Part shown: piece by piece, positions 1 through 27,300 of the stretch
Numbering within the stretch: the first letter of the stretch is position 1
How the letters are laid out: each line of letters starts with the position of its first letter
Origin: a virus
Strand: one strand, 5' to 3'
Length of the DNA stretch: 58,693 nucleotides
IMG/VR virus record: IMGVR_UViG_3300035698_012504
Location: 1-58,693 of that record
The notes under the pieces: model-generated
Databases searched by the model: none
Seen by the model: the letters and a program-made list of their open reading frames with translations, nothing else
What the model was told of the DNA's origin: nothing
Translations under genes and position numbers: made by a program

Positions 1-18
1 AGAGGAATCTGTATATAG
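1..18 (+). CDS. 3' end (partial) of a further upstream member of the tandem-array small protein family
   Basis: aga gga atc tgt ata tag = RGICI*, the same tail as the member ending at 808 (GGICI*). AGGAGG and ATG 27 follow. Confidence 0.6.
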   Translation, partial: RGICI

Positions 19-26
19 GAGGATGT

Positions 27-389
27 ATGTTAGGATTAGACCCATATGTTATGGATCGATTAATTCCTATATTAAAAGATAATTTGTTCTTCAAGTATAT
101 AGTAGATAATATGGATTATAAGGAAATGGGGTGGGTTCATAATTCTATAACGTTTAGTTTCTCTACACTAGATGGCACCCTTGACATACTTATGGGAGTT
201 CATGATGAGGCAATAAGAATTGTAATCTATATGACATATTTGGATACTTTTTTAATAAAAGAAAACAATATACATTATGAAATTAGTATAAAATTCGCTG
301 ATGAGCATATGCCTGAAACAGGATTTACAATTGCTACTAATGGGTATATACATATATTAGACATTATAAGAAAAGGGATATCAATATGA
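27..389 (+). CDS. tandem-array small protein family member (120 aa), tail LDIIRKGISI
   Basis: AGGAGG upstream of the ATG. The stop overlaps the next start as ATGA. Family C-terminal tail present. Confidence 0.85.
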   Translation: MLGLDPYVMDRLIPILKDNLFFKYIVDNMDYKEMGWVHNSITFSFSTLDGTLDILMGVHDEAIRIVIYMTYLDTFLIKENNIHYEISIKFADEHMPETGFTIATNGYIHILDIIRKGISI

Positions 390-808
390 TAATGGATATG
401 ATTGATACTGAAGTTAATAATGGATACCTTATTAGGCGTACATTAAATCAAACCTTAACGAAGAGTCAGATATTTAAATGGATAGCAACATATATAGAGG
501 TTGAATCGACTAGAAGTGTAAAAGTATATACTTCATTTAATAATATAGATATTATATTAACCGGCATGAAAGGACTTCATCACATAACAGTGAGTATTAC
601 TGGGAAAACTTATATAGTCGATAGATATAATCACCCTAGATTTGCACCAGATAAGATTAATCCTATTAATATTATTATGGAGTTTTATTATACAAGCCCC
701 CCTCATAAATTATTTGTTGTTAGAGATAGATGGTTTAAATACGATGTGACCCCTTCTCAACATTCAATAAATTTAACTGATATGTTAATGGGAGGAATCT
801 GTATATGA
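386..808 (+). CDS. tandem-array small protein family member (140 aa), tail DMLMGGICI
   Basis: ATGA overlaps at both ends. Acidic N-terminus MIMDMIDTE. Confidence 0.85.
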   Translation: MIMDMIDTEVNNGYLIRRTLNQTLTKSQIFKWIATYIEVESTRSVKVYTSFNNIDIILTGMKGLHHITVSITGKTYIVDRYNHPRFAPDKINPINIIMEFYYTSPPHKLFVVRDRWFKYDVTPSQHSINLTDMLMGGICI

Positions 809-1116
809 TAGTTGATATGTTGACAATCGATTCATCGATGTTTGTATCCACTATGACAGAACACAGCTATAGTCTATACTTAGATAACTTAATTATATCG
901 TTTAGACCAGATAATCCTAGATATCCCCACCACCTCGTATTATCCCTCTGTTCATATGATTATGACGGAATAGATATAGAATTAATCAAATATGCAAACT
1001 TTCACTATGTTTATGAGGTAGATGTATTTGATAATATTACATTTGAACATGTAAATAATATATGTAAATCTATAATATGTACGTTGGATATTATCAGGAG
1101 AGGGATATCAGTATGA
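805..1116 (+). CDS. tandem-array small protein family member (103 aa), tail LDIIRRGISV
   Basis: ATGA overlaps at both ends. GGGAGGA lies 9 nt upstream of the ATG. Confidence 0.85.
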   Translation: MIVDMLTIDSSMFVSTMTEHSYSLYLDNLIISFRPDNPRYPHHLVLSLCSYDYDGIDIELIKYANFHYVYEVDVFDNITFEHVNNICKSIICTLDIIRRGISV

Positions 1117-1535
1117 TGGGTTATGTCGGACCTATGTCAAAACAAGATAGGAAATATTTAAGCTCTTTCCCACATGATCTAAGAACTAATTTTATAGCAA
1201 GTACGCTAATACGATTTGGATTTAAAAGGAAAACAATTGAAGATATGGATAGGACTGTTTTAAATCTATCTAGTAGTTTTTATGTACCTGGATCAACATA
1301 TAGTAGAATTGTATCGATTCGTATTAATGGTAGAATGTGGAACGGATACACATATAGCCCTATACCTGAAGGGTATCATGCTAGAATAAAAATAACACTT
1401 AATGATGATGTCATGTATATAACGAGGCGAGATAGCCCGTATGTATACATATTTAGTGCTCCTCCGTGGCCTAAGAAAGGAAAAGATAAACAAATTCATT
1501 TGTTAAATATACTAAAGTTAGGAATCTGCATATGA
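1113..1535 (+). CDS. tandem-array small protein family member (140 aa), tail LNILKLGICI
   Basis: Start moved from ORF-track 1077 to ATG 1113, which forms ATGA with the upstream stop. AGGAGAGGGA lies upstream. Confidence 0.8.
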   Translation: MMGYVGPMSKQDRKYLSSFPHDLRTNFIASTLIRFGFKRKTIEDMDRTVLNLSSSFYVPGSTYSRIVSIRINGRMWNGYTYSPIPEGYHARIKITLNDDVMYITRRDSPYVYIFSAPPWPKKGKDKQIHLLNILKLGICI

Positions 1536-1759
1536 ATTACCCATCTATGAGGGAACTAAGTAGATATATAATGGATAATATAGCGATTGATGGATATAGA
1601 ATATCTAGCAATAGTAAAAATGGAATAATAGTTAATATGAATGAAACTAAGATCTCTATTTTAGATAGTGAACATTATTGGATTAGACTAGAGGATTATA
1701 ATAATAAACCTAAAAGAGTCTATCTCTTGGATATATTATCCCAAGGAGTAGTGATATGA
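1532..1759 (+). CDS. tandem-array small protein family member (75 aa), tail LDILSQGVVI
   Basis: ATGA overlaps at both ends. Confidence 0.8.
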   Translation: MNYPSMRELSRYIMDNIAIDGYRISSNSKNGIIVNMNETKISILDSEHYWIRLEDYNNKPKRVYLLDILSQGVVI

Positions 1760-2126
1760 AGCTTGCTCTGTTACGTGCTCTATATAATATTAATTTCACT
1801 GAGCACCTAATGGAGAATGGTGGTAATGATGTAATCTTTAAATATACAAAACCAGAAATTGATGATGATAGTAAACCATGTAGAGTATATGTTAGTGTCA
1901 CTGAGCCAAGCTATACTGGATTAGGTGGGATAAAGTGGCATTGGGACCACCAATTGATAGAGTAGTTGTAGAACTATATCGAGATTGGGATCTATTAAGA
2001 TGTTCGTATATGTCTCTTGTAGGTATGAGTAAATTTGGATATATTTATCAGGTTACAGATGTTGATTTTAAAATCACTAAAGATATATTCATTATGGACG
2101 TCCTAAAGAGAGGAATAGTAATATGA
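1756..2126 (+). pseudogene. tandem-array family member interrupted by a frameshift (1756-1965 plus 1935-2126), tail MDVLKRGIVI
   Basis: The 5' part has an ATGA-coupled start but no family tail. The 3' part has the tail and an ATGA junction but no coupled start. The frames differ by -1 and the joined length is about 124 codons. The -1 frame is open from 1905. Confidence 0.6.
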
Positions 2127-2329
2127 TCTTTGATAACGATAATAAGATACCATTTGAACATCAATCAAGAGTATATGAAGTTTATTTAGATGTCTATGAT
2201 ATGTTTCATGGTGGGCACGCAGTTCATCCCCTAATTATAGCAGGACTCCCATTTCATATTAACCCTTCCCACTTCAACTTTGGAAGAATAGCGAATTGGA
2301 TATATCATACAGGAGGAGTTGTAATATGA
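2123..2329 (+). CDS. tandem-array family, MIFDN subfamily member (68 aa), tail ANWIYHTGGVVI
   Basis: N-terminus MIFDNDNKIPFE. His/Pro-rich centre. ATGA overlaps at both ends. Confidence 0.85.
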   Translation: MIFDNDNKIPFEHQSRVYEVYLDVYDMFHGGHAVHPLIIAGLPFHINPSHFNFGRIANWIYHTGGVVI

Positions 2330-2688
2330 GCGTCCAGCAAAGAGAAGAAGAACTATTCGATTTATTACAACGTTCAGGATTTAAGAAAAGAAGTCATCGC
2401 ACATCTATGATGGATTTTAGAGAAGAATCGTTTGATTTTGGTAACTATGTAGTAATTACTCTAAATGAAAATGGGTATATTGATGTGGAGATAGTAGATA
2501 AATTAGATATAGATAAATCGAGATACTACTATGTTAAAAGAATGGATAAAAGTAGTTTTAAAATGAGAATATATGCGAGTACTTATCCCGTGGCACCAGA
2601 ACGTATATTCGAATTTAAAATAGGAATAGATAAATTAGGAAAATTAATAAATACGTTTGATGTATTTAAACAAGGAGCAATATTATGA
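2326..2688 (+). CDS. tandem-array small protein family member (120 aa), tail FDVFKQGAIL
   Basis: Start moved from 2296 to ATG 2326 (ATGA overlap, AGGAGGAG upstream). Confidence 0.8.
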   Translation: MSVQQREEELFDLLQRSGFKKRSHRTSMMDFREESFDFGNYVVITLNENGYIDVEIVDKLDIDKSRYYYVKRMDKSSFKMRIYASTYPVAPERIFEFKIGIDKLGKLINTFDVFKQGAIL

Positions 2689-2906
2689 TATACATAGATA
2701 CTATGGATCGTTATATAATTAAGAATTATGATGAGTATGTTAGTAAAATACATACAGACATACTTACCACAATCCAACATAAACTTAATAAAGGTTATGA
2801 TGAGTGGACACACTATGAATACTTTCTTAGTCGTCATCTTATAAGATCTATTAATAGCTCGAACATATGTAGTTGAATATTTGCAAAACAAGGAGTTGTG
2901 GTATGA
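2685..2906 (+). pseudogene. tandem-array family member with an in-frame TGA at 2874-2876; the family tail IFAKQGVVV* continues in the same frame
   Basis: The ORF 2685-2876 lacks the tail. Ten codons further on in the same frame come QGVVV and the ATGA junction to the next gene (2903). Confidence 0.6.
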
Positions 2907-3361
2907 CTGAAAGAGGTATAATTAATGTATTAGATTCTTTACAATTCAACAACTCTAAAATATCTGGATCTTTTGCTGCCCCTATTAATGGAAGGGGATT
3001 TGCTCATATGAATCCAGGTCCTCCAACAGCACGATTTACATTCAGAGATAAAAATAGAATATCACTATCAACTACAATTTCAAAACCACAGATGATTGAT
3101 GTAGTATCAAGAAGAACCCATTTACTCGGAGGAATATCAAGACGTGGCCTAGTTGTAGAATGTTGGTTATACATACACTCTGATATAAATGATTATTATC
3201 TTTACTTTGTCGTACCATTTAATGAATCGACATTCACTGTTTATTTCACTCATAAATATAATGAGAAGGATAAAGATCATATTGATAGGGTTGGAACATT
3301 GTTTAGTAGATCAAAACCTATATTCATTCTAGATGTATTGAAGCGAGGAGTCGTGATATGA
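2903..3361 (+). CDS. tandem-array small protein family member (152 aa), tail LDVLKRGVVI
   Basis: Start moved from 2873 to ATG 2903 (CAAGGAG upstream, ATGA motif). Confidence 0.8.
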   Translation: MTERGIINVLDSLQFNNSKISGSFAAPINGRGFAHMNPGPPTARFTFRDKNRISLSTTISKPQMIDVVSRRTHLLGGISRRGLVVECWLYIHSDINDYYLYFVVPFNESTFTVYFTHKYNEKDKDHIDRVGTLFSRSKPIFILDVLKRGVVI

Positions 3362-3687
3362 TGTATACAGATGGATCAGATATGCTATATACATTTACAT
3401 TATCTGACGTAATAACTGGTGTAAAGGGTAGATCGTTTGATTTCATTATAAAAATAGATGAATACCCAGACTTTGTTAACAAAGGGCATACAAGATTAAA
3501 AAAAGTATCTCTTTATTTCTCAGTGTTTGGTAAAACATGTACTATTGATTGTATGTTAAACTCTAAATTCCCAAATATATTCTTATTTAATAATCTCCAT
3601 TATATTGTGTTAGTATATAACAATGGAGTTACTATGCCAACTTCAGTTAACACATTTAATATAATATCTCATGGTATCGTAATATGA
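3358..3687 (+). CDS. tandem-array small protein family member (109 aa), tail FNIISHGIVI
   Basis: ATGA overlaps at both ends. N-terminus MMYTDGSD. Confidence 0.85.
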   Translation: MMYTDGSDMLYTFTLSDVITGVKGRSFDFIIKIDEYPDFVNKGHTRLKKVSLYFSVFGKTCTIDCMLNSKFPNIFLFNNLHYIVLVYNNGVTMPTSVNTFNIISHGIVI

Positions 3688-3965
3688 TTGTAGATACTAC
3701 TGATATGAAAGAGCTAGGTATTGGTGTATGTATCTCAGAAGGGTTATGGGTAGATACATTTCACACCAAAGATATAATGCTAACTTTATACCGTTATATA
3801 GATGGAGGATCAATTACATCCATAACTAGAGATCAGGCTGAATTGGTCAGACATCATGGTAGAGTATATACATTTGATTTATTTGATACGCATATTATAT
3901 CATCTGCTCATCATAATGGATTAATTACTCCACTCAACATGATAAAGAGAGGGATTGTAATATGA
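3684..3965 (+). CDS. tandem-array small protein family member (93 aa), tail LNMIKRGIVI
   Basis: ATGA overlaps at both ends. N-terminus MIVDTTDM. Confidence 0.85.
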   Translation: MIVDTTDMKELGIGVCISEGLWVDTFHTKDIMLTLYRYIDGGSITSITRDQAELVRHHGRVYTFDLFDTHIISSAHHNGLITPLNMIKRGIVI

Positions 3966-4189
3966 TATTTGACAACGGCAACGAGTTATTATTTGAAGAT
4001 TGTCTACCAGTGTATGATGTGTATTTTAAAATATCTGATGTTTTTGGTATACCCCTCCGTATTAAATTTCCCCTTCCAAAAAATAAATATGGAAATCCCA
4101 AAGTTTTATATTACCTTCCGACGCTCCCTAGAATACATATCTCAATAATATTTAAGTTGATATATTATAGTAAAGGAATTAATATATGA
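3962..4189 (+). CDS. tandem-array family, MIFDN subfamily member (75 aa), tail LIYYSKGINI
   Basis: N-terminus MIFDNGNELLFEDC. Pro-rich centre. ATGA overlaps at both ends. Confidence 0.85.
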   Translation: MIFDNGNELLFEDCLPVYDVYFKISDVFGIPLRIKFPLPKNKYGNPKVLYYLPTLPRIHISIIFKLIYYSKGINI

Positions 4190-4488
4190 TATATGAAGAT
4201 ACTACAGATGCCCTAATGGGGGTGGAATATAATCCCGCAGAAGAATGTATTAAACTTAGCTATGGTAAGGAATCATTTTCACATGTAGATGTTGCTCTTT
4301 ATAGTGATGGTGGATTCGGATTTAGAATATCTAGATACCATTATATGAATATGTTGTCGTGTGTTACAGTAAAACGATCATACCGACAAAGGTTCGAATA
4401 TATATTTAAGACTGGATGCCATGAGCAATTTAGAAAGAAGCGATATGTTAATCTGATGGATATCTTCAACAGAGGAGTTCCTATATAG
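4186..4488 (+). CDS. tandem-array small protein family member (100 aa), tail MDIFNRGVPI
   Basis: ATGA overlap at the start. N-terminus MIYEDTTD. The TAG stop overlaps the next GTG start (TAGTG). Confidence 0.85.
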   Translation: MIYEDTTDALMGVEYNPAEECIKLSYGKESFSHVDVALYSDGGFGFRISRYHYMNMLSCVTVKRSYRQRFEYIFKTGCHEQFRKKRYVNLMDIFNRGVPI

Positions 4489-4712
4489 TGTATGTAGATG
4501 TAAAAGTTAATATGATGCTTAGTGCCGTAATGTACAAAGATGCTGGAGATTTTCGCGACTTGTGTGTTCATAATTATACTAGACCACTAGCCATTAAACC
4601 AATTAGATATAGTGGATATGGTAGGGATATGGGTTATACAGCATACATTAGAGGTTTTAGATTTAAGGACGTATTTAACCAAGTAATGAAGAGAGGAATA
4701 GTATGGAAATAG
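4488..4712 (+). CDS. tandem-array small protein family member (74 aa), tail FNQVMKRGIVWK
   Basis: GTG start overlaps the upstream TAG. The junction reads ATGG instead of ATGA, so the tail runs 2 codons past the thyX ATG. Confidence 0.7.
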   Translation: MYVDVKVNMMLSAVMYKDAGDFRDLCVHNYTRPLAIKPIRYSGYGRDMGYTAYIRGFRFKDVFNQVMKRGIVWK

Positions 4713-5485
4713 TAGAACCGAAAGTATTTTTAATAGCAGAAACTAAATTAGATAATGAGGGCCTTCTTGAATATCTCAAGGATCTTAACGTATTAGATTA
4801 TAGCTGGAGTGCCCCGTCTGATTCAGAGGCGCTATGTGAGATGATGGGAAGATTGTGTTATAGATCATTCAAGCCTGGTCTTAATCCCAATGTTACAAAA
4901 GTAAGGACCGGTAATGATGTATACTTAAAGAACATTATAAACACTGGGCATGGGTCAGTTTTAGAACATGCTAGTGTAAGTTTTATATTCAAAGACGTAT
5001 CTCGAGTATTCACGCATGAGCTTGTTCGACATAGATCAGGGGTAGCTATATCTCAAGAGTCTCTTAGATTCGTTAGGTTAGATAAGCTTAGTGCGTATGT
5101 CCCGATACAGATAGAAGAGAATGAAGAAGCAATGTCTTTGTTCATGGATACGTTTGATAAACTTGAAGAGGTGCAAAAACAACTCGCTGACATTTACGAT
5201 ATAGAGAACACTGATGACTTTGCTAGGAAGAAAGAATTAACCTCTGCATTCAGGAGAGTTGCCCCTATTGGATTAGCAACTACCATAGGGTGGACATGTA
5301 ATATGCGAGCACTAAGACACATAATCGAATTAAGAACTAGCCCACATGCAGAGATAGAACTTAGAGTAGTATTCGCAAAAGTATTTGATATAGTGAAAGA
5401 TAAATACCCTAATATATTTGGAGATTATAAAGTAGAGATGGTAGATGGTATACCGTGGGTGCATACTACGGAGGAGAAGATCTAA
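4703..5485 (+). CDS. thyX: flavin-dependent thymidylate synthase ThyX
   Basis: ThyX signature RHRSGVAISQESLR plus GHGSVLEH. AGAGAGGAA RBS lies inside the upstream tail codons. Confidence 0.9.
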   Translation: MEIVEPKVFLIAETKLDNEGLLEYLKDLNVLDYSWSAPSDSEALCEMMGRLCYRSFKPGLNPNVTKVRTGNDVYLKNIINTGHGSVLEHASVSFIFKDVSRVFTHELVRHRSGVAISQESLRFVRLDKLSAYVPIQIEENEEAMSLFMDTFDKLEEVQKQLADIYDIENTDDFARKKELTSAFRRVAPIGLATTIGWTCNMRALRHIIELRTSPHAEIELRVVFAKVFDIVKDKYPNIFGDYKVEMVDGIPWVHTTEEKI

Positions 5486-5501
5486 CATAAGGTAGTGAAT
5501 T

Positions 5502-5818
5502 ATGATATATGTTACTGGATGTATAAACTCAACGTTTTCTGAAAAGTTGATACATGAATCATTTAATAACATCTTAATATTATTAGACTTCATAGATGAT
5601 GATGATTATATGAATTATATCCTTGAGTATGGTATTAAGATTTATCCAATTTGTCCCATTCGATTTGAACTCTATTTAATTATAGACACTCCCCTCAGAT
5701 AGATATTCATTTCACACAAAGTCCAAAAATATCTGTAGTGTATACTAGTAAAGGTATACGTGTACCAGTCATTAGCTTTCATTTAATTGATATATTTAAG
5801 AGAGGGATAGCCATATAA
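5502..5818 (+). pseudogene. tandem-array family member interrupted by a frameshift (5502-5702 plus 5669-5818), tail IDIFKRGIAI
   Basis: The N-terminus MIYVTG is in one frame. The -1 frame is open from 5669 and ends with the family tail FKRGIAI* at 5816-5818. Confidence 0.55.
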
Positions 5819-5828
5819 AGGAGATAGT

Positions 5829-6077
5829 ATGCACATAGATGAAGACGGATTATACAATGAAGTTGCTCGTTATATTAGAACAAGGAATGATTTATCATTA
5901 GGACTTACTGTTATGAATATAACAAATGGTAAATTATTAATAGTAGTAGTTAATGACCCATCTAATAGAGGAACGCGGTTTAATCATGTAGATAATCTTA
6001 AAGAAATACTACCCAAAGTAATTCATTATTTCATATTAGTGTATATGGATGTTATGAAGGAAGGAATAAATATCTAA
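5829..6077 (+). CDS. tandem-array small protein family member (82 aa), tail MDVMKEGINI
   Basis: AAAGGAG RBS. The stop overlaps the next start as TAATG. Confidence 0.8.
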   Translation: MHIDEDGLYNEVARYIRTRNDLSLGLTVMNITNGKLLIVVVNDPSNRGTRFNHVDNLKEILPKVIHYFILVYMDVMKEGINI

Positions 6078-6451
6078 TGGATATGTATATGAGAACTCCT
6101 TTAATAAGACCATGTAGAGAAGAATATGATCATAGTTTTAGTACGAGAATATGTCACGCATGGATAAGAACTAAAACTAATTCATTTATTCACTTCCAAG
6201 TATCTGTTTCTCCAACTAACTCTACAGACAAATTCAAGCTGATGATGTTTTTGACAACAGATGATAAAATCAATGAAATAGGGACACGGGCATGGGTAGA
6301 AGAAAAACAAATATTAAGTATAGGAGCATCTAGGATGTTTGAATTATACTATGGGACCAGACTACAAAATCCTCTTATCATTCAGGGAATTTTTAAAAAA
6401 GGGGTATGTATCAATTCGAATGATTTTTTAAACGGAGGAATCGATATATGA
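6077..6451 (+). CDS. tandem-array small protein family member (124 aa), tail DFLNGGIDI
   Basis: TAATG overlap at the start and ATGA overlap at the end. Confidence 0.8.
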   Translation: MDMYMRTPLIRPCREEYDHSFSTRICHAWIRTKTNSFIHFQVSVSPTNSTDKFKLMMFLTTDDKINEIGTRAWVEEKQILSIGASRMFELYYGTRLQNPLIIQGIFKKGVCINSNDFLNGGIDI

Positions 6452-6810
6452 TATTTATATCTCCACCAGAAGATGGATTATATTCAGACTCAATTGTTAG
6501 GATAGAGCTTGTACCACACTCATCTAATCGCAGATATAAATTTATTGCTAATATTCCATCTAAACTAGATGATGTTTTATGTTCAATTTACGTCAGAAAA
6601 AAATCCCCATGGTGCCGAGACGATATAATAATAATATCATTCAAGCATCATAGATGTTATTTTCAAATATCTACTTTTAGTGGGTATGAACCAACTAAAG
6701 TATTTACTAAACCTAAAGTACAAACACTAATAACTAAACAGGGATGCAAATCAGAAGAAACTTATAGGGATATGGGTAGAATGTTTAGATGTGGAGGAAT
6801 CTCAATATGA
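6448..6810 (+). CDS. tandem-array small protein family member (120 aa), tail MFRCGGISI
   Basis: ATGA overlaps at both ends. ACGGAGGA upstream. Confidence 0.85.
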   Translation: MIFISPPEDGLYSDSIVRIELVPHSSNRRYKFIANIPSKLDDVLCSIYVRKKSPWCRDDIIIISFKHHRCYFQISTFSGYEPTKVFTKPKVQTLITKQGCKSEETYRDMGRMFRCGGISI

Positions 6811-7037
6811 TATTCGACAACGGTAATAAATTGTTATTTAAAGATTGCTCGTTAGTATATGACTATCTTAAATTATATAATTACATTCACCTTCACCCTC
6901 ACCTTCACCCTCACCTTCACCTTCACCCTCACCCTCACCCTCACCTTCGCCCTCACTCCCGCCTTCCCCTTCACCCTCACCTTCAACCCGAAAAATTATT
7001 TAACTGGGTGTATAATAAAGGAGGAGTTGTGATATGA
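6807..7037 (+). CDS. MIFDN subfamily member with a (His-Leu/His-Pro)n repeat core (76 aa), tail FNWVYNKGGVVI
   Basis: Start moved from 6789 to ATG 6807 (ATGA overlap). Near-identical paralogue at 8556-8786. Confidence 0.85.
   Translation: MIFDNGNKLLFKDCSLVYDYLKLYNYIHLHPHLHPHLHLHPHPHPHLRPHSRLPLHPHLQPEKLFNWVYNKGGVVI
6888..6983 (+). repeat. in-frame hexanucleotide repeat CACCYT (16 units, degenerating at the 3' end) encoding HLHPHLHP...
   Basis: Read directly: cac ctt cac cct cac ctt cac cct ... inside CDS 6807-7037. Confidence 0.9.
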
Positions 7038-7432
7038 TATTTGATACGACGTGTGAATATAACATGTATCAGTATGCATATGGAATGACTACACGTAAGA
7101 ATACAGTGACTAGAGAACATACTAGAATTACTATCCGTTCTCTTAGAGGTTATTGTTTCACATTCGAAAATCTAAGACATCCTCCGAAAGAATATGAAGG
7201 GCATTTTATATCGAGGGACGTTGAAGAGTTTTTAATAATTTATAAAGTAGATAGGATTACAGATGTTTATTACGATTTTATAAGAATAGGGAAAGTAGTG
7301 AGAGGGAAGAATCATTTAGTACGAAATGGAAAGAGAGAAATAATAATAACAACTGGTGTAAATCATACTACATCTGTTCCCAATGTATGTACAATTATAT
7401 TGGCGCTTTGTAGGAAAGGAACAGTCATATGA
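7034..7432 (+). CDS. tandem-array small protein family member (132 aa), tail ILALCRKGTVI
   Basis: ATGA overlaps at both ends. AAAGGAGGAG upstream. Confidence 0.85.
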   Translation: MIFDTTCEYNMYQYAYGMTTRKNTVTREHTRITIRSLRGYCFTFENLRHPPKEYEGHFISRDVEEFLIIYKVDRITDVYYDFIRIGKVVRGKNHLVRNGKREIIITTGVNHTTSVPNVCTIILALCRKGTVI

Positions 7433-7647
7433 TATTTGATAATGATAATAAAATGTTGATCGGAGATCCTACTAAAGCTTATAATACATATTGTTATATT
7501 AATACTCACACATGGGCAATTCAATATCTTAGTATGCATCTTCATACTAAATATCTTAATCTTACTCTTTTCCCACATTCTCGATTCCATCCTAGATTAG
7601 GAACCACATACAAATGGATAATTGAAAATAAAGGGGTCGTGATATGA
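7429..7647 (+). CDS. MIFDN subfamily member (72 aa), tail KWIIENKGVVI
   Basis: N-terminus MIFDNDNKMLIGD. His-rich centre. ATGA overlaps at both ends. Confidence 0.85.
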   Translation: MIFDNDNKMLIGDPTKAYNTYCYINTHTWAIQYLSMHLHTKYLNLTLFPHSRFHPRLGTTYKWIIENKGVVI

Positions 7648-8006
7648 TATTTGAATCGGTTAACATTGATTTGTTTTGGAGAGATGGATTACATTTGAGA
7701 ACATTAAAACATGGTTATACCCACTTCTTTAGAGAAACTTACGTTGATAAAATATTTATGCATGATACATTTATAGGAGATTTATTACTCGAATGTATCC
7801 TTGTCAACCATATAGATTATATAAGAATACGAATTCCAACATTTCCATATAGATCCATGACATATAAATTTGATATGGGTACCGAGATACTCATTCGATT
7901 TGGATCTGGTAATATATTCTGTACGCAGACAAGTAAAAAAGAAGAAAAAATTAAGTGGTTTCAATTTGGAACTTTAGATATCATGACTAGAGGGGTAGTT
8001 ATATGA
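7644..8006 (+). CDS. tandem-array small protein family member (120 aa), tail LDIMTRGVVI
   Basis: ATGA overlaps at both ends. The N-terminus MIFESV is shared with the member at 9960. Confidence 0.85.
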   Translation: MIFESVNIDLFWRDGLHLRTLKHGYTHFFRETYVDKIFMHDTFIGDLLLECILVNHIDYIRIRIPTFPYRSMTYKFDMGTEILIRFGSGNIFCTQTSKKEEKIKWFQFGTLDIMTRGVVI

Positions 8007-8251
8007 TTTATGTATATGATGCATCAGATTCATTACAAGGTATAAGATTAGATGATATTGAATTTTATATATCATCGGATGCAGTATGTGATATGTGTAA
8101 GAGAACAGATATTATGTGTGATAATCAATGTGCTATTTACTTTAATTCATGGCCATTTACAGAGGTGACCAAAGAGTTTTATGTTCCACCACGACCAACC
8201 ATCCCTCTTATGTATAATTGGGTGAGGAGACAGATAGGAGCTGTTGTATGA
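8003..8251 (+). CDS. tandem-array small protein family member (82 aa), tail YNWVRRQIGAVV
   Basis: ATGA overlaps at both ends. The NW tail resembles the MIFDN subfamily. Confidence 0.8.
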   Translation: MIYVYDASDSLQGIRLDDIEFYISSDAVCDMCKRTDIMCDNQCAIYFNSWPFTEVTKEFYVPPRPTIPLMYNWVRRQIGAVV

Positions 8252-8559
8252 TATATTTTACAAATGACACCCAGGGCGGGATGCAACAACATAATATAGA
8301 TGTCTACGTTAAAGATGTGTTACAGTTTTATAGACAAATCTATGATTTTGAACCTTACTATAATATACTAGATCCTATATTAAAGTATGCCCCAATATGT
8401 AGATATACTAGAGATGCTATATTATTTACACAAGAGGTATCCCCTGGTCTTTTTGGGGTTGTGATTAAAGAAGAACATCAAGAATTTCATGGAGTTAAAG
8501 TTACATTGTCTTTTATATGTGGATGGGTAATGCATCAACAACAAGGAGTAATTATATGA
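8248..8559 (+). CDS. tandem-array small protein family member (103 aa), tail VMHQQQGVII
   Basis: Start moved from 8218 to ATG 8248 (ATGA overlap, TAGGAG upstream). Confidence 0.8.
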   Translation: MIYFTNDTQGGMQQHNIDVYVKDVLQFYRQIYDFEPYYNILDPILKYAPICRYTRDAILFTQEVSPGLFGVVIKEEHQEFHGVKVTLSFICGWVMHQQQGVII

Positions 8560-8786
8560 TGTTTGATAACGGTAATAAATTGTTATTTAAAGATTGCTCG
8601 TTAGTATATGACTATCTTAAATTATATGATTACATTCACCTTCACCTTCACCTTCACCCTCACCTTCACCCTCACCTTCACCTTCTCCCTCACCTTCTCC
8701 CTCACCCCCGCCTTTCCCTTCACCCTCACCTTCAACCCGAAAAATTATTTAACTGGGTGTATAATAGAGGAGGAGTAATAATATAA
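8556..8786 (+). CDS. MIFDN subfamily member with a (His-Leu/His-Pro)n repeat core (76 aa), tail FNWVYNRGGVII
   Basis: Start moved from 8517 to ATG 8556 (ATGA overlap). Near-identical to 6807-7037. Confidence 0.85.
   Translation: MMFDNGNKLLFKDCSLVYDYLKLYDYIHLHLHLHPHLHPHLHLLPHLLPHPRLSLHPHLQPEKLFNWVYNRGGVII
8637..8732 (+). repeat. in-frame hexanucleotide repeat CACCYT (second copy)
   Basis: cac ctt cac ctt cac ctt cac cct ... Same length and register as 6888-6983. Confidence 0.9.
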
Positions 8787-9139
8787 TGTATGTAGATTGT
8801 ATGGATAAGGATATTTATCCAGAAGCCATTTAATTAGGATGTTCAAATACATATGATAAGAGTGGAGATACATGCGATCTAATGTTTTGCAACTTCAGTG
8901 AAAAACATCCATATGAATTTCTTATGAAATTAGGAATATCTGATATAAGAATAAAAATATCATATCCAGTTGGAGAGCGAAGAGTAGTTAATTTAATGAT
9001 ACTTGGACTAAAGAGCGGTGATGGAATATATGTAAAGTTCAGCGCACTGAAGACAATAACAATTATGTCTGAAGATGGGGAACGCAAATGGAATGATTAC
9101 ATGGGTTGGTTTTTACAGCAAGGTATATATATTAAATAG
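8786..9139 (+). pseudogene. tandem-array family member with an in-frame TAA at 8831-8833, tail WFLQQGIYIK
   Basis: The TAATG-coupled start gives MYVDCMDKDIYPEAI*. The same frame then continues without further stops into ORF 8882-9139. Total length is 118 codons, typical of the family. Confidence 0.55.
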
Positions 9140-9182
9140 TGACAGAAGGAATCTATTTCACACAACCAAAAAGGAGAGAAGT

Positions 9183-9692
9183 GTGAAGAATATTCATTGG
9201 CCCAAGGCGTGCATCTATATTTTTCTTTTACTGTTTTTATTACTTGCTAATGGGGAAATTGTAGGCGAGTTGAAAAGACCTATAATAGAATCCCAATTGA
9301 GTGCTGCGATAACAATTCCAGTTGTTATATTAGGTTTAAGTCAGAGCATATTCTTGGGATGGCTCATCGGGGCCATCGTCTGCTCATCTATAGGATTTAT
9401 GAATAATCCAATTGAACGTGTAATTGAAGAATTTGATAAAAAAGGAATACGAGCATATTATACAAATATGATATCTTTTTACGGGCTCATTATATTAACA
9501 CCATATAATTTATTTCTGTACTTTTGGCCAGTAGACGCAACTACTACGTTTATATTTGGAAACATTATGTTTTGGGCTGTATCTAGTATTATAATTTATA
9601 AGAATCTATGGGAGAACGTGAAGATTGACAACTTGGTTAAGGAGTGGTTCTTATGCAAGCCCTATCAGATATGTTTAAAATCTCAAAGCTAG
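9183..9692 (+). CDS. multi-pass membrane protein (169 aa) embedded in the array
   Basis: GTG start 9183 preceded by AAAAGGAGAG. Several hydrophobic segments (IYIFLLLFLLLA, ITIPVVILGLSQSIFLGWLIGAIV, GLIILTPYNLFLYFW, IMFWAVSSIIIY). ORF-track start 9075 rejected. Confidence 0.65.
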   Translation: MKNIHWPKACIYIFLLLFLLLANGEIVGELKRPIIESQLSAAITIPVVILGLSQSIFLGWLIGAIVCSSIGFMNNPIERVIEEFDKKGIRAYYTNMISFYGLIILTPYNLFLYFWPVDATTTFIFGNIMFWAVSSIIIYKNLWENVKIDNLVKEWFLCKPYQICLKSQS

Positions 9693-9949
9693 CAGTCGCT
9701 GTATTCATTCTAATAAATGTACTACATGTATTGATGTTTGTTGTAGCTATACCTATAGTAGTTATGTTGTACACTAAACTTAAGCTTATGGGAACTATCC
9801 CAGAGGATGGGATTATACCACTTATAGTATTATTTGGGGGTGGTGCTACTGTTGGCTTAGCATTTTCGTCTATGAAAAAGAAAATTTTAGAGTGTGTGGT
9901 ACCTGAATCTATGCATAATGAAAATAACCCGATAGTGGATGAACTATAA
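9653..9949 (+). CDS. small membrane protein (98 aa), two predicted TM helices
   Basis: ATG 9653 lies 8 nt after AAGGAG. Hydrophobic stretches LAVAVFILINVLHVLMFVVAIPIVVML and IIPLIVLFGGGATVGLAF. Confidence 0.65.
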   Translation: MQALSDMFKISKLAVAVFILINVLHVLMFVVAIPIVVMLYTKLKLMGTIPEDGIIPLIVLFGGGATVGLAFSSMKKKILECVVPESMHNENNPIVDEL

Positions 9950-9959
9950 GGATAAATCC

Positions 9960-10289
9960 ATGATATTTGAATCTGTTAAATCTATTAGCCCATTTAATAG
10001 TAGTAATATAACTAAATACCCATTTGGAGAATCTTTAGTAACATGTCAAGTAGATTATAATCTTAGAAAGAAGTTTAGGATAGGGATAACTGTAATAAAT
10101 CATAACACATATTATAAAGAAAAGGTAATTGTGATTTCCTATTTCCAAACAGATGGTAAGATTAGAAGTGCTGAAATAGGGCCTATACAAAAATCATCAT
10201 TTAGATCCTATTTTACCACTAAAATTATTACACATGGTGAAATCATTAATGCTTTTCTTAAACTGACGGGTAATGGAATAAGTATATGA
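9960..10289 (+). CDS. tandem-array small protein family member (109 aa), tail FLKLTGNGISI
   Basis: Start moved from 9939 to ATG 9960 (MIFESV, as in member 7644). ATGA overlap at the 3' end. Confidence 0.8.
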   Translation: MIFESVKSISPFNSSNITKYPFGESLVTCQVDYNLRKKFRIGITVINHNTYYKEKVIVISYFQTDGKIRSAEIGPIQKSSFRSYFTTKIITHGEIINAFLKLTGNGISI

Positions 10290-10611
10290 TAGTAGATGGG
10301 TTAATCATGGGATCCAACTCATCAGAAGTTAGACTTCAAAAAATGATAATATCTGGTAGCCTCAAACCAGGACAAGAATATATATCTATTATTGATCTTA
10401 CAAAAAAAGAGTAGTATTTTTCATTAGATTTTATGGTGCGCTGGTCTCAGGGCCATTTGATCCACATCAATCCTATATCTCGGTGAGCAGATACATAGAG
10501 ATCGTAGATGTAGACGGTGGATTTAAATTAAAATATATACGAGAAAAATTTAAAACACTATTGATTGGAAATCTATACATTATGATATCGAAACGAGGGA
10601 TTCTAATATAA
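10286..10611 (+). pseudogene. last array member, split at an A7 tract: 10286-10414 (42 codons) plus the -1 frame 10396-10611 ending in the family tail YIMISKRGILI
   Basis: ATGA-coupled start MIVDGL. The 0-frame stops at TAG 10412. The -1 frame is open from 10396 and carries the tail. The joined length is about 108 codons. Confidence 0.6.
10402..10408 (+). other. A AAA AAA slippery heptamer / homopolymer (candidate -1 frameshift or indel site)
   Basis: The 0-frame reads aca aaa aaa gag tag. Phasing fits X XXY YYZ, with a 0-frame stop 1 codon downstream. Confidence 0.5.
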
Positions 10612-10621
10612 AGGAGAGAAA

Positions 10622-11548
10622 ATGACAGGCCGTAATGTAGATATCGCGGAACTATTATCTAGAGTAAAATCAACACTCTCTACTAATGTAGATGAGACTA
10701 TTGACATTCCTACCATTGCTGAACCAGAACCACCGAGGGCAAAGAAGTCTACAATTTCTAGAATTAAAGATAGTGGGTTATCCATAATATTAAATCCAAA
10801 GAATATATTGGGTCGATATAGAGTTAGACCAAATCATAGATTGTCTGCTTTGGGAGTAGATGCCGAGGATATACCATCTGTTAATAAATTTGAAAGAATA
10901 GATAGTATTTTTAGAAATGATAATGAGCACGATAGAATTGATATTGAGCTACTTCAATTAAAGATGGATCTCGCAGCAGGTACAGTAAAAGCAGTTGAAC
11001 CCAAATCATCAGAGAAGGTGATATATTTATCCCCTACTGTCCCTAGTGAACTTGATAGCTCATTATACTCATATGATGATCAAGAAGATCAATTAATGGA
11101 ATTTTCAAAATACTATTGCGAATGCGCCATTGAGAATGGATGGAAGATATTATTAAATACATCAAGTGCTGATCCAATAATATGGAGAAAACTTAGAGAT
11201 ATGTTTGGAGATAATATAATCCTAGCAGATGGTAATAGTCTGCGTCAAAGTGTAGTAGATAATGGATGTAAAATATTATTCATTGCAGGAGGAAGTACAG
11301 GAGCAGTTAACGATATTGAACGGATATATGATGAATGGAATACATATCAGTGTGGAAGCACAATTATATATCATGCCGTTTCATTTGGCGGAGTATATGA
11401 TGTGAATGGCGAAATAATTTATTCTCTTGGAGGAGAAGGAGTAGAATATATAAGGGACATTACAGATTCTCGTCATAGATCTCCAATGAGTAGAGCTATT
11501 ATGAGTAAGTTTTTTGAATTTGTCACAGAAAGATACTCTAGGTTTTAG
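10622..11548 (+). CDS. hypothetical protein (308 aa)
   Basis: AAAGGAGAG RBS. Long ORF with no recognisable motif. Confidence 0.75.
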   Translation: MTGRNVDIAELLSRVKSTLSTNVDETIDIPTIAEPEPPRAKKSTISRIKDSGLSIILNPKNILGRYRVRPNHRLSALGVDAEDIPSVNKFERIDSIFRNDNEHDRIDIELLQLKMDLAAGTVKAVEPKSSEKVIYLSPTVPSELDSSLYSYDDQEDQLMEFSKYYCECAIENGWKILLNTSSADPIIWRKLRDMFGDNIILADGNSLRQSVVDNGCKILFIAGGSTGAVNDIERIYDEWNTYQCGSTIIYHAVSFGGVYDVNGEIIYSLGGEGVEYIRDITDSRHRSPMSRAIMSKFFEFVTERYSRF

Positions 11549-11560
11549 GAGAGAAACGCA

Positions 11561-12328
11561 ATGAGAAGGAAAGAAGTGTTTGTCATAGGGCTTGGAAATC
11601 CTGGGAACGCGGCCTCAATAGATTCTAGGCATAACGTTGGACAACTTGCCGTCGGTAGAGCACTTGCAATATATGGTGACTTACGTCCTCCAGGATCTGA
11701 GTCTCATAGGGACCGAATACAAAATGAAGATATTAAATTAAAATTGAGAAGAGCACCTATGTCAGTAAAAGATACAAGTATATTAAAATTTGGAGAGAAT
11801 CGAAGATCATATAAATATTACAGATCAACCGTGCTGCTCTATGGAATGACCATCAATTTTATAGAACCGGTTAATGTATATATGAACAGTTCTGGAAGAT
11901 TTATACGTGCGCTTAGATTAGATACAGATGAGTTTCTAGAAAATTTACTTATTATTCATGATGATATAGATTTACCAATTGGACGAGTGAGATTCCGTAC
12001 TGGGGGAGGGGACGGGGGACACAATGGAATAAAGAATATACGAGTAAATTTAGGAGATGATTTCTCTAGATTAAAAGTAGGAGTTGGAAGACCAACAGAT
12101 GATACAGTAGAACAATATCTAACTAGAGAAATGTCACTTAAACATAGGAAGCATATTAATAAGGTAATAGATACTATATTGAAAAAGTGTATGCTCGATT
12201 GGGCATTATATGGAACAGCGCATTGTTCTGTTAAGTACAACAAACTATTTGTTAATGGAAGTGGTAATGTTACTACATGGAAGAAACATCAAAAGGAGCT
12301 TGAAGAACTTGTGCGAAAAGAAGTCTGA
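11561..12328 (+). CDS. pth: peptidyl-tRNA hydrolase (255 aa, with an insertion and a C-terminal extension)
   Basis: Pth motifs VIGLGNPG..SRHNVG and HDDIDLPIGRVRFRTGGGDGGHNGIKNI. Confidence 0.85.
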   Translation: MRRKEVFVIGLGNPGNAASIDSRHNVGQLAVGRALAIYGDLRPPGSESHRDRIQNEDIKLKLRRAPMSVKDTSILKFGENRRSYKYYRSTVLLYGMTINFIEPVNVYMNSSGRFIRALRLDTDEFLENLLIIHDDIDLPIGRVRFRTGGGDGGHNGIKNIRVNLGDDFSRLKVGVGRPTDDTVEQYLTREMSLKHRKHINKVIDTILKKCMLDWALYGTAHCSVKYNKLFVNGSGNVTTWKKHQKELEELVRKEV

Positions 12329-18610: not shown

Positions 18611-19177
18611 ATGTCTAAAAAACTTTCATATGAATATGTAAAGCAATATTTTGAAGAAAATAGTTGCGAATTATTAGAAAGGGAATATGATAATTGTATG
18701 ATTAAAATGAAATATAAATGTTCTTGTGGAAGAATAAGTAAAATAAGTTTTAATAATTTTAAAAGTAAACATAGATGTAGTGATTGTGGTGGGAATGAAA
18801 AACATTCTTATGAATATATAAAACAATATTTTAAAGATAATAATTGTGAATTATTAGAAAAAGAATATATTAATAATAAAACTAACATGAAATATAAATG
18901 TGAATGTGAAATATTACTAGGATATTCTAGAAAAGATATTTTAGAGTATCTTAAGAAGGATCCAAATTTTGATAACTGGGTAAAGAATTCATCCAGCTGG
19001 CACATAGATCATATTATTCCAATAAAAGCATTTGTAGAAAATGAAATAACTAATCCGAAAATAATAAACGCTTTAGATAATTTAAGAATTATACACTGGA
19101 AAGAAAATTTACAAAAAGGTGCTACATTTAATAAGAATGAACTTCAAAGTTATGTGCAATCGAAAGGTATATTATGA
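18611..19177 (+). CDS. HNH homing-endonuclease-like protein, family copy 1 (188 aa, internally shortened)
   Basis: Two N-terminal YEY[VI]KQYF..CELLE..MKYKC.C modules. C-terminal HNH core WHIDHIIPIKAF...NLRIIHWKENLQKG. Confidence 0.75.
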   Translation: MSKKLSYEYVKQYFEENSCELLEREYDNCMIKMKYKCSCGRISKISFNNFKSKHRCSDCGGNEKHSYEYIKQYFKDNNCELLEKEYINNKTNMKYKCECEILLGYSRKDILEYLKKDPNFDNWVKNSSSWHIDHIIPIKAFVENEITNPKIINALDNLRIIHWKENLQKGATFNKNELQSYVQSKGIL

Positions 19178-19704
19178 TAAAATATGTCAAAGGTGATTTG
19201 TTCCTAACAGACTGCAATTCTATTTGCCATGGCGTGTCGTGCGCTGGTGTGATGGGAGTCGGGGTTGCTAAGAGAATGAAAGAAAGATACCCTGCTAATT
19301 TCAAATACTATCATAACCAATATAAATTTAAAAAATTGAAACCAGGTGAAGTATATATCTTTGCAGGATATCCTAGAAAAATTATAAATCTTACAACTCA
19401 AAGTCAATATGGTAGAAAGAGAATTAAGTATGCGACATTGGAAAATATTAAATCTTGTTTTTTGAAACTTAAATTATTACTACCAGAATATAATAAGGTG
19501 ATAGTTAAAAAGGGAAGCGGACCCATACAAAGTATTGCTCTTCCTAGAATAGGATCTGGATATGGCGGACTTAATTGGAAAGATGTTAAAAATCTTATAG
19601 ATACTCATCTCTCTGATACAGTACCCATAGTAGTATTTGAAGATTTTAAATATGGAATGAAGGCAGAAGAAGAAAATGAATTTCTGTCAAAGGAGCTGAA
19701 TTAA
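19174..19704 (+). CDS. macrodomain (ADP-ribose binding/hydrolase) protein
   Basis: VKGDLF...CHGVSCAGVMGVGVAKRMKERYP and IALPRIGSGYGGLNW, the typical macro-domain motifs. ATGA overlap with the upstream HNH. Confidence 0.65.
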   Translation: MIKYVKGDLFLTDCNSICHGVSCAGVMGVGVAKRMKERYPANFKYYHNQYKFKKLKPGEVYIFAGYPRKIINLTTQSQYGRKRIKYATLENIKSCFLKLKLLLPEYNKVIVKKGSGPIQSIALPRIGSGYGGLNWKDVKNLIDTHLSDTVPIVVFEDFKYGMKAEEENEFLSKELN

Positions 19705-26315: not shown

Positions 26316-26319
26316 TAAA

Positions 26320-27300
26320 ATGAAAATTTTATTCTGTACATATGAAATGTCTGATTATGGATTAGATCTATTATATGATGGATTGTGTAAATTATTAGGA
26401 CCTGATAAAATATTCGAGTATCCAGTAAAACCATATTATCATGGCACAAGAGACGGAAGGTTTGCAAGATACCCTCAGTTTTTCAAATACCCATTAAAAC
26501 ATTCAAATGCTGATATAGATCGTAAACTAAGAAGAGATTTTTTCGATGTTATATTAGTAGGGTGTAGATCAAAAAATGATTTCACATATCCCGATGCGGT
26601 TAATGTAAATCATGAATATGTAATGATCAAAGAATTAATAAAACTGAAGTCAAAAAAGATACCTACTTTCTTAGTAGATCAAGATGACTTCCCACCAATT
26701 AATAACACTCTCTTTAAAAAAGAGATACCTAATTCTCTTGCTTATTTTAAGCGAGAGTATAGAAAGGATGTACACCATCCTAATAACATACACCCCCTCC
26801 CATTTTCTTTTTCTACAGATTTTATGCCAAACAGTAGATCTAAAATAAAAAATAGGATTTTGTTCTGGGCAGGGGATATAAATACAGATCATAGACGACA
26901 ATATATTGAGAGAATGAAACAAGAACTCAAGTTAGATTACAATAAGAAGTTTCCCCCTAATGAGTTCCATTCAATTTTAAGTAAATCTAGAATGGCTTTA
27001 AATCTTTTTGGATTTGGAAACGATACTGTTAGATATTATGAGATACCAGTATATGGTGCTATGTTATTCTCTATGAAATCAAACAACTTAATTCAACATG
27101 ATTTTATTAACAATAAATCTGCTATTCTTTTTTCGTCCCCTCAAGAAATGGTGGATAAATTTAAATTTTATAGGAAGAAGCATCTTCTTATAGAGAAGAT
27201 ATCAACTGAAGGGTTTAAACATGTTAGAAGATATCATAATAGTAAAACAAGGGCTGAACAGTTTATGAAAATAGTTAGGAATTATAATGGAAAGAAATAA
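26320..27300 (+). CDS. CgeB-like / GT-B-type glycosyltransferase (putative)
   Basis: The C-terminal RYYEIPVYGAMLFS pattern resembles the CgeB/Glyco_trans_1_2 family. ATG 26320 preferred to TTG 26308. Confidence 0.4.
   Translation: MKILFCTYEMSDYGLDLLYDGLCKLLGPDKIFEYPVKPYYHGTRDGRFARYPQFFKYPLKHSNADIDRKLRRDFFDVILVGCRSKNDFTYPDAVNVNHEYVMIKELIKLKSKKIPTFLVDQDDFPPINNTLFKKEIPNSLAYFKREYRKDVHHPNNIHPLPFSFSTDFMPNSRSKIKNRILFWAGDINTDHRRQYIERMKQELKLDYNKKFPPNEFHSILSKSRMALNLFGFGNDTVRYYEIPVYGAMLFSMKSNNLIQHDFINNKSAILFSSPQEMVDKFKFYRKKHLLIEKISTEGFKHVRRYHNSKTRAEQFMKIVRNYNGKK

Follow-up and report, generated by a model that had tools for sequence, protein, structure and literature searches.

A tandem array of small viral genes joined by a recurrent coding junction

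What holds together a long run of small genes whose ends are alike and whose middles are not? The question is raised by a viral sequence of 58,693 nucleotides (IMG/VR record IMGVR_UViG_3300035698_012504, positions 1 to 58,693, one strand; this whole stretch is hereafter called the window), in which small open reading frames (ORFs) follow one another on the + strand in a near-continuous chain from position 1 to 10611. An initial annotation, made from the sequence without database searches, described this chain as an array of small paralogous genes with conserved termini and hypervariable cores. Here we show that the C-terminal tail of one gene and the head of the next form a single contiguous junction of ~50 nucleotides (nt), and we favour reading the array as a chained operon of a private, fast-evolving family of small proteins that recombines at these junctions.

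The chain seen in the ORF listing agrees with the one first described. Thirty units of the array lie in the window, as originally counted, if the partial unit at 1-18 is included. The predicted continuation upstream was also found: two further units bring the total to 32, and the array starts at position 4356 of contig L001, which corresponds to window position -943 (~940 bp 5' of window base 1). Intact units account for 26 of the 32 (42-153 codons), and the remaining six are disrupted. The array is interrupted, as had been noted, only by thyX (4703-5485) and by two ORFs, 9075-9692 and 9644-9949, that have hydrophobic segments and are the membrane-protein genes of the initial annotation. The ending [GQ]-[IVAT]-x-[IVL]-stop closes 26 ORFs, all of them on the + strand and within 1-10611, against a single match in the six frames of the remaining 48 kb, so that the array holds 26 of the 27 occurrences; a degenerate DNA pattern for tail plus junction gave 7 matches compared with 0.00 expected from shuffled sequences.

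These ORFs have the properties of maintained reading frames. The sequence has a GC content of 31%, and every large gene is on the + strand. At this composition, stop codons make up ~8.7% of random triplets and the probability of 100 open codons is ~1e-4, which argues that the array ORFs have been maintained. Under a codon model trained on the large genes of the virus, the actual frame was the best-scoring one for 33 of 33 array ORFs, with 0.01-0.29 bits per codon in frame, the mean of the training genes being 0.24; because stop codons count against frames +1 and +2, it is the in-frame score that is informative. A 74.8-kb metagenomic contig contains the window sequence without a difference, and contigs from three other samples are identical to it as well.

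In the junction logo, positions -15 to +4 relative to the stop codon are conserved at the nucleotide level and read GAGGA, ~7 nt, ATATGAT, with GG at -12/-11 reaching 2.4 bits. This string combines a Shine-Dalgarno (SD) sequence of the AGGAG type, located inside the Arg/Lys-Gly codons of the tail, with an ATGA stop/start overlap 7-9 nt downstream, and an SD-like 4-mer is found 3-11 nt 5' of 29 of the 31 starts. The 10.6-kb array contains 21 ATGA overlaps, compared with 3 among the long ORFs of the other 48 kb; the stop/start variants TAGTG and TAATG are also present in the array, and the genes abut or overlap, leaving no intergenic DNA. In the junction at 350..399 (+ strand), an example of an arrangement that recurs ~30 times, the tail codons ATA CAT ATA TTA GAC ATT ATA AGA AAA GGG ATA TCA ATA lead through the ATGA overlap into the opening codons of the following gene. 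RNAalifold predicted 0 conserved pairs across 21 junctions, the junctions contain no inverted repeat or attC-like structure, and a scan for sigma-70-like promoters returned 68 sites compared with 93.7 ± 8.9 in shuffled sequences, none of them consistently placed at junctions.

Two junctions follow a variant design (5792-5831 and 10585-10624; repeat family D10), in which the tail ends in TAA, not ATGA, and a fresh AAGGAGA SD comes after the TAA, with the ATG 6-7 nt later (TAA-AGGAGAG-ATG; starts at 5829 and 10622). To judge from this arrangement, the translational chain is uncoupled at both places, the second of which marks the end of the array.

Further upstream in the junction, conservation is of a different kind. 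Between -39 and -16, the first two positions of each codon carry the information, the third does not rise above background, second-position T marks hydrophobic residues, and synonymous codons vary freely (TTA, TTG, CTA and CTC for Leu; GAT and GAC for Asp). Free third positions next to conserved first and second positions point to selection on the peptide I-x-[IL]-L-[DN]-[IV]-[IL]-[KR] and not on RNA. The last five codons of the tail thus appear to be largely constrained as nucleotides, and the preceding seven or eight residues appear to be selected as protein.

The shared C-terminal end of the initial annotation is real, but it comes in two types and not one, both of which carry the same SD and overlap. 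Type 1, I-x-[IL]-L-[DN]-[IV]-[IL]-[KR]-[KR]-G-[IV]-x-I, is found in ~20 copies; type 2, [FY]-[NK]-W-[IV]-x4-G-[VA]-[VI]-I, in five 'MIFDNGN' copies, the copies at 8003 and 8248, a nonsense copy at 2685 and a degenerate one at 8882. The shared N-terminus, M-I-[FYV]-[DE], was likewise found, but it extends over only 3-4 residues and the ATGA overlap fixes the first base after its ATG; a minority of copies (e.g. MIFES, MIYED) have an I-x-E motif. What had been described as conserved termini is therefore present but consists in part of the SD, the overlap and the start context of the neighbouring gene. The rest of the tail seems not to be dictated by its place. The thyX gene and the two membrane genes occupy slots in the array and feed the next cistron, yet have no tail, which argues that the tail is inherited by the family rather than imposed by position, and where ATGA overlaps occur outside the array, three in all, the genes end in ...KGIL, ...KVEL and ...DRRK, which shows that an overlap by itself does not prescribe the tail.

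Beyond the tail, similarity among the copies is limited. With heads and tails masked, BLAST recovered the F subfamily alone (2123, 3962, 6807, 7429 and 8556), and Smith-Waterman z-scores added subfamily A, made up of the four copies with which the array begins, and a weak trio (805, 1935 and 2326), with 18 of 378 pairs above z=3. Neighbouring copies are not generally closer to each other than distant ones, the first four being the exception. The cores are thus no more alignable than originally reported, apart from these three small subfamilies. Among type 1 copies, similarity does survive masking of the last 6 codons: in 13 of 18 copies, residues -13 to -7 still exceed the 5% level of shuffled sequences, as do residues -45 to -14 in 7 of 18, compared with 0.9 expected, the latter signal reflecting an aromatic strand-like element, [FY]-x-[YF]-x-[IV] (alignment A2). 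The family as we see it is accordingly defined by its C-terminal module, with cores that would be either diverged beyond detection or of separate origin.

Several footprints of turnover coincide with the junctions. A 239-nt stretch at 6805-7043 is duplicated at 8554-8792 with 92% identity and unrelated flanks; the identity runs from the 5' ATATGAT to the 3' SD/ATAT(G/A)A and so stops exactly at the junctions on both sides, and the 15 differences are mostly Leu/Pro switches in a His/Leu/Pro repeat. Within the unit at 6077-6451, positions 6380-6451 hold a collapsed, empty cassette: a tail (KKGVCI), the mini-ORF ATG ATT TTT TAA (MIF-stop), a second SD and a second tail (GGIDI-stop). Double tails are also present in units 6448-6810 and 9960-10289. 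The thyX gene fills a slot exactly and uses the SD of the upstream junction (AGAGGAATAGT-ATG). The six disruptions comprise four frameshifted copies and one in-frame TGA in place of the tail Trp, which together are the five originally counted in the window, and one disrupted copy upstream; all are identical base for base in the contigs of the three other samples, and their recurrence in independent assemblies shows that they are real and not assembly errors. The duplication, the empty cassette, the double tails, thyX in its slot and the six disrupted copies point to birth and death of genes by recombination at junctions, and they bear out the initial picture of a fast-evolving multigene array subject to amplification and decay.

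We favour, with a probability of roughly 0.55, the reading that the array is a chained, promoter-proximal operon of a private, fast-evolving family of small proteins, that its junctions recombine and that the tail has a common role. The array would form the promoter-proximal portion of a long operon on the + strand, carried by a large uncultivated tailed phage, and would encode ~32 small proteins (42-153 amino acids) of a lineage-private family. Its cistrons would be chained by the ~50-nt junction, at which a terminating ribosome would reinitiate on the next gene; we infer this coupling from published work on ATGA pairs. Being repeated ~30 times, the junction could also provide homology for unequal recombination, through which cassettes would be duplicated, deleted or fused and foreign genes such as thyX admitted, a mechanism that we infer from the footprints described above. 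The tail-bearing genes are most likely true paralogues, with cores diverged beyond recognition, because the foreign genes in slots gained no tail and because the part of the tail that precedes the SD is conserved as amino acids, not nucleotides. The latter also suggests a shared role at the protein level, for example as a helix-strand element that docks one partner or closes a small fold.

The location of the array bears on its function. An intrinsic terminator with a 17-bp stem and a T-run lies directly 5' of the first copy (L001 4248-4296), and none of comparable strength was found inside the array. On the 3' side follow an orphan gene for 308 amino acids, Pth, glycosyltransferases, a clamp-loader-like ATPase, a primase, ribonucleotide reductase (RNR) and a FEN-type exonuclease. 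By analogy, the array is probably a repertoire of early host-takeover or anti-defence proteins under birth-and-death evolution, a role suggested by the small size, orphan status and rapid turnover of its genes and by their position after a terminator and ahead of genes for nucleotide metabolism and replication. It is in blocks of small orphan early genes that phages keep takeover and anti-defence functions.

Several results weigh against the reading of the array as one recombining, functional family. Family-wide leave-one-out hidden Markov models with the last 13 residues masked performed at chance level (median z 0.2), and hhalign comparisons between subfamily profiles were no better than reversed controls, so common descent of all copies is not demonstrated; for the array as a whole, in contrast to type 1, masking at this depth leaves the original claim of a multigene family close to falling. 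The ratio of nonsynonymous to synonymous polymorphism (pN/pS) in the duplicate pair is ~0.9, a value drawn from only 15 differences and compatible with relaxed constraint. Two AlphaFold2 runs with paralogue alignments gave models of low confidence (predicted local distance difference test scores of 51 and 41.5), in both of which a short helix falls on L-D-I-I-R-[KR], a hint and no more. No promoter for the array was identified, the sigma-70 scan showing no enrichment, and expression timing, translation and function are assigned entirely from position and analogy. Relatives of the virus or the array were not found and the contigs of the different samples do not differ, so that selection (dN/dS) is not measurable comparatively.

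A rather different possibility, which we consider doubtful, is that the conserved entity is the junction itself, a ~50-nt element for translational coupling and recombination that spread among unrelated genes, the tail being mainly a by-product and the ORFs not being paralogues. Cores that cannot be aligned and subfamily profiles that are unrelated would be expected in this case, as would a conservation that is strongest at the nucleotide level (GAGGA-N7-ATATGAT), duplication breakpoints within junctions and the use of a slot by thyX. However, an element acting as nucleic acid does not account for the free third positions, conserved first and second positions and synonymous variation between -39 and -16, which argue for selection on a peptide, nor for two distinct tail types on the same SD and overlap. 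The thyX and membrane genes feed the next cistron from their slots without having gained a tail, no such tail accompanies the ATGA overlaps found elsewhere in the genome, and weak similarity reaches out to -45 in 7 of 18 type 1 copies. Conservation of the pre-SD tail as protein on otherwise unrelated cores invites another interpretation, in which the tail, the MI[FY][DE] head or both serve as a targeting signal for a diversified set of effectors. A portable 13-residue tail of this kind would be an address or docking peptide that brings ~30 unrelated or hyper-diverged effectors to one shared partner, with the tag DNA doubling as ribosome hand-over and as the recombination site from which new effectors arise; possible roles include capsid packaging for co-injection and binding to one chaperone or protease or to one host hub, and any of these, the capsid or an ejection route included, could be the shared partner. 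The restriction of the tail to the array gene set, its hydrophobic-x-hydrophobic C-terminus and the precedent of the polymorphic internal proteins of T4, which share a conserved targeting peptide, are consistent with this interpretation. Nevertheless, we regard it as quite unlikely: neither a partner nor a prohead protease nor a structural module was identified in the window; in T4, the signal is N-terminal and cleaved, whereas the head here spans 3-4 residues and is partly forced by the overlap; the array adjoins early and replication-type genes and not virion genes; and nothing can be read from the structure models.

With its tandem cassettes, conserved at the boundaries and variable in between, the array also recalls programmed diversification, be it by silent cassettes and an expression site, a diversity-generating retroelement or an integron-like array, and a cassette-type diversification locus was one of the options raised in the initial annotation. 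That option is not borne out, and we consider it highly improbable. No unit is silent, each being equipped with an SD and a start codon of its own; the junctions have neither an inverted repeat nor a conserved hairpin or attC site; there is no pair of template and variable repeats, the sole near-identical pair differing mainly by C/T changes in a repeat; and no reverse transcriptase or integrase was found among the neighbours scanned, which were not all the genes of the contig. Equally remote, in our judgement, is the notion that the array is non-functional DNA, with ORFs that are spurious or decaying remnants, even though 6 of the 32 units are disrupted, the recent pair has the pN/pS given above and homologues are lacking. 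The 26 intact ORFs abut precisely on one strand, where chance would yield 100 open codons at ~1e-4, codon usage resembles that of real genes in 33 of 33 ORFs, the SD/start context is kept at 29 of 31 starts, and the tail is conserved at the amino-acid level. If the tail does prove to be a functional tag, it would offer a handle with which to pull out the common partner and to predict effector genes in related viruses, and a docking peptide of this kind would make the array a self-expanding effector cassette system of a previously undescribed type.

The favoured reading calls the family private to its lineage, and database searches are in keeping with this. Among 29 array members, each scanned singly, there were 0 matches in Pfam and only single marginal ones in PHROGs, NCBIfam and PADLOC (E 0.003-0.009). 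A profile search against PDB sequences gave a best E of 0.77. The family profile matched only itself among 5.8 billion proteins, and the tail profile, run exhaustively with HMMER against 1.84 billion representatives, returned nothing but self matches and three tandem-repeat artefacts. The initial annotation had not recognised the family, and none of these five resources supplied a match to a well-characterised one. Megablast and tblastn searches of deposited phages gave no match to this virus. In viral contigs, a strict pattern had 0 matches, and a second pattern hit 27 loci, all single chance matches without an array; at least 119 loci were hit in metagenome contigs, again as single chance matches and with no array among the matches listed. 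The gene for 308 amino acids adjoining the array matched nothing in viral contigs and only itself among the 5.8 billion proteins. As far as these databases go, the array appears to be lineage-private and the lineage a singleton, almost without relatives at present.

The units can be followed along the + strand through the array portion inside the window (1..10611, 30 units). It opens with RGICI-stop (1..18), the C-terminal end of a unit begun upstream (L001 4975-5316, 113 amino acids), and the disrupted upstream copy, the sixth such copy, is at L001 4640-4738 / 4805-4984. The copy at 27..389 (120 amino acids, type 1 tail IHILDIIRKGISI) belongs with three copies upstream to subfamily A, which has the N-terminal motif L..YI.(D/E)N..Y in common. 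Six ATGA-chained units occupy 386..2126 (386-808, 805-1116, 1113-1535, 1532-1759 and 1756-1965 / 1935-2126); those that bear tails have type 1, and the last, 1756-1965 / 1935-2126, is either a frameshifted copy or two overlapping genes. A subfamily F copy (MIFDNDN..., 2123..2329) with the type 2 tail ANWIYHTGGVVI and a type 1 copy of 120 amino acids (2326..2688) with the tail INTFDVFKQGAIL come next. In the copy at 2685..2906, the ORF (2685-2876) ends at an in-frame TGA (2874-2876) that occupies the Trp (TGG) position of the type 2 tail; the remnant IFAKQGVVV-stop follows, and the SD and ATGA of the next gene are intact. The use of TGA as a sense codon at 2874 was rejected, as TGA terminates 21 copies right after the tail.

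Type 1 units at 2903-3361 (152 amino acids), 3358-3687 and 3684-3965 and a subfamily F unit at 3962-4189 fill 2903..4189, and two more units (4186-4488 and 4488-4712) span 4186..4712, the second ending ...VMKRGIVWK, with its SD/tail region running straight into the start of thyX (4703..5485; Pfam Thy1, E=6e-41). Beyond thyX lies a frameshifted copy (5502..5818), whose head, MIYVTGC..., lies at 5502-5702 and whose tail, IDIFKRGIAI-stop, is read in a different frame at 5669-5818. Three units at 5829..6810 (5829-6077, 6077-6451 and 6448-6810), the last two of them double-tailed, precede the first of the two duplicated cassettes of subfamily F with a His/Leu/Pro repeat core (copy A, 6805..7043). 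The stretch 7034..8559 holds units 7034-7432 (type 1), 7429-7647 (F), 7644-8006 (type 1), and 8003-8251 and 8248-8559 (type 2 tails), and copy B of the duplicated cassette follows at 8554..8792. A frameshifted copy at 8785..9139 has a head, MYVDCMDKD..., that reaches a stop, and an ORF at 8882-9139 that ends in GWFLQQGIYIK, a degenerate type 2 tail. After the two tailless ORFs with hydrophobic, transmembrane-like segments, the last units (9960..10611) are the double-tailed 9960-10289 and the frameshifted 10286-10414 / 10483-10611, with the tail YIMISKRGILI.

In both duplicated F cassettes, the His/Leu/Pro repeat (6880-6990 and 8630-8740) reads HLHPHLHPHLHL... and consists of DNA units CACCTTCACCCT; the two copies differ mainly by CCT/CTT (Pro/Leu) switches, and the opposite frames are open too. 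By coordinate arithmetic, two independent assemblies (L002 and L005) end at approximately window positions 6848 and 6912, inside the duplicated cassette, a break of the kind expected when an assembler meets a genuine repeat.

The wider genomic context is viral, with homing endonucleases (PHROG, E=6e-152), a primase, a clamp-loader-like AAA protein and a class II RNR with an intein. The nearest homologues of thyX are at cellular loci of Candidatus Hydrogenedentota, with 63-68% identity and the same length; there, thyX adjoins a class II RNR (RNR_Alpha and RNR-II_ins_dom), and the virus has an RNR of that type. These affinities hint at Hydrogenedentota as host or gene donor, a phylum with essentially no characterised phages. 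The RNR gene (40573-43803) is interrupted by the intein, which contains a LAGLIDADG homing endonuclease domain (Pfam Intein_splicing, LAGLIDADG_3 and Hom_end). Upstream of the array, GC content steps from ~50% (positions 1-5500 of contig L010) through ~40% (5500-7000) to ~30% from 7000 onward, including the array (window base 1 is L010 9975; the step was examined over L010 1-10500). A second assembly (L011) confirms the join between 40% and 30%; the 50% part is present in one contig alone and resembles Hydrogenedentota contigs (51-56%), and it may mean that the assembly is chimeric, that the genome is a mosaic or that an integration boundary lies here.

Elsewhere in the window, the product of 56158-57222 matches Pfam Volactin, an archaeal actin homologue, over its full length (E=1.3e-61); a putative actin-like cytoskeletal protein in a phage-like genome may deserve attention of its own. 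At least four genes encode HNH or homing endonucleases (18611-19177, 46574-48415, 52200-53009 and 57179-58075), and 46574-48415 matches phrog_3339 at E=6e-152 together with DUF7487 and a C2H2 zinc finger. At least five glycosyltransferase genes (GT2, GT1-like and GT8) and a putative rhamnosyl transferase are found in 24654-31056 and 48960-49862, and an ATP-grasp protein of the Ter-operon type (36216-37487) and a GDPD phosphodiesterase (37660-38478) are encoded near glycosyltransferases. A bacterial-type peptidyl-tRNA hydrolase (11561-12328) and a macro domain protein (19174-19704) are candidates for counter-defence or translation-rescue functions.

How, then, does the array relate to systems already known? 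Diversity-generating retroelements and integrons offer little likeness. The sole long repeat pair here is a whole-cassette duplicate whose differences are mostly C/T and not adenine-specific, and scans that covered part of the genes of the contig gave no reverse transcriptase match; for integrons, there is no attC-type structure, nor an integrase among those neighbours that were scanned. The promoter-proximal clusters of the large virulent phages SPO1 (genes 37-60) and T5 (the pre-early genes) comprise ~20-30 small orphan genes with strong ribosome-binding sites. The array resembles these takeover modules as a promoter-proximal cluster of small orphan genes; their genes, however, are not paralogous, have no common terminal motif and are distributed over several operons. 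The T4-like internal proteins with a capsid targeting sequence, among which IPI* of T4 has an anti-defence role, are likewise small, diverse and fast-evolving, with nothing in common but a short terminal peptide. Their signal, however, is N-terminal, ~10 residues long and cleaved by the prohead protease at (L/I)-x-E, and there are a few such genes per phage, not dozens in tandem; no link to a protease or to the virion was found in the window.

Recombination-driven gene amplification in viruses is known from the 'genomic accordions' of poxviruses and the multigene families of African swine fever virus. The counter-defence gene tifA of T4 is amplified by recombination as well (Srikant et al. 2022, bioRxiv 10.1101/2022.04.14.488369). 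In these systems, as apparently in the array, tandem accessory or counter-defence copies arise by recombination and are then subject to divergence and loss. The known copies are recent and recognisable, whereas here mostly only the tail is left, and the boundary of the repeat unit coincides with the translational coupling signal. With respect to that signal, strict coupling by termination-reinitiation was observed in 13 of the 14 ATGA pairs tested (Huber et al. 2019, PMC6728339). The 4-nt stop/start overlap and the SD within the upstream gene are common to those pairs and to the array, where coupling is predicted from sequence. Known cases are pairs or short runs that often encode subunits of a complex, in contrast to 21 overlaps in 10.6 kb, and only in the array do the SD codons belong to a conserved family tail.

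The closest parallel in organisation may be drawn with the hyperplastic regions of T4-type phages, in which PeSL elements, consisting of a non-coding sigma-70 early promoter and a terminator stem-loop, cause each gene to be transcribed singly (Arbiol et al. 2010, PMC2839356). Those regions, too, are blocks of small, non-essential orphan ORFs in which a short repeat of the intergenic type supplies the homology for insertion, deletion and shuffling of cassettes (PMC2839356), and repeats serving as cassette breakpoints are met here in the 239-nt duplication, the empty cassette and the double tails. In the array, however, the repeat is coding (tail, SD, ATGA and head), with no hairpin or enrichment of promoters; its genes appear to be chained in one transcript, and their proteins share a tail; and in place of a stem-loop per repeat, there is one strong terminator 5' of the whole array. 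Hyperplastic regions of small genes and the amplification of viral genes are thus known, and what is distinctive here is a coding junction that is at once protein tail, coupling signal and, to judge from the footprints, recombination site. If our reading holds, the array is an unusually clear case of one short sequence with three jobs, as the tail of a protein, as the point of ribosome hand-over and as the homology for recombination.

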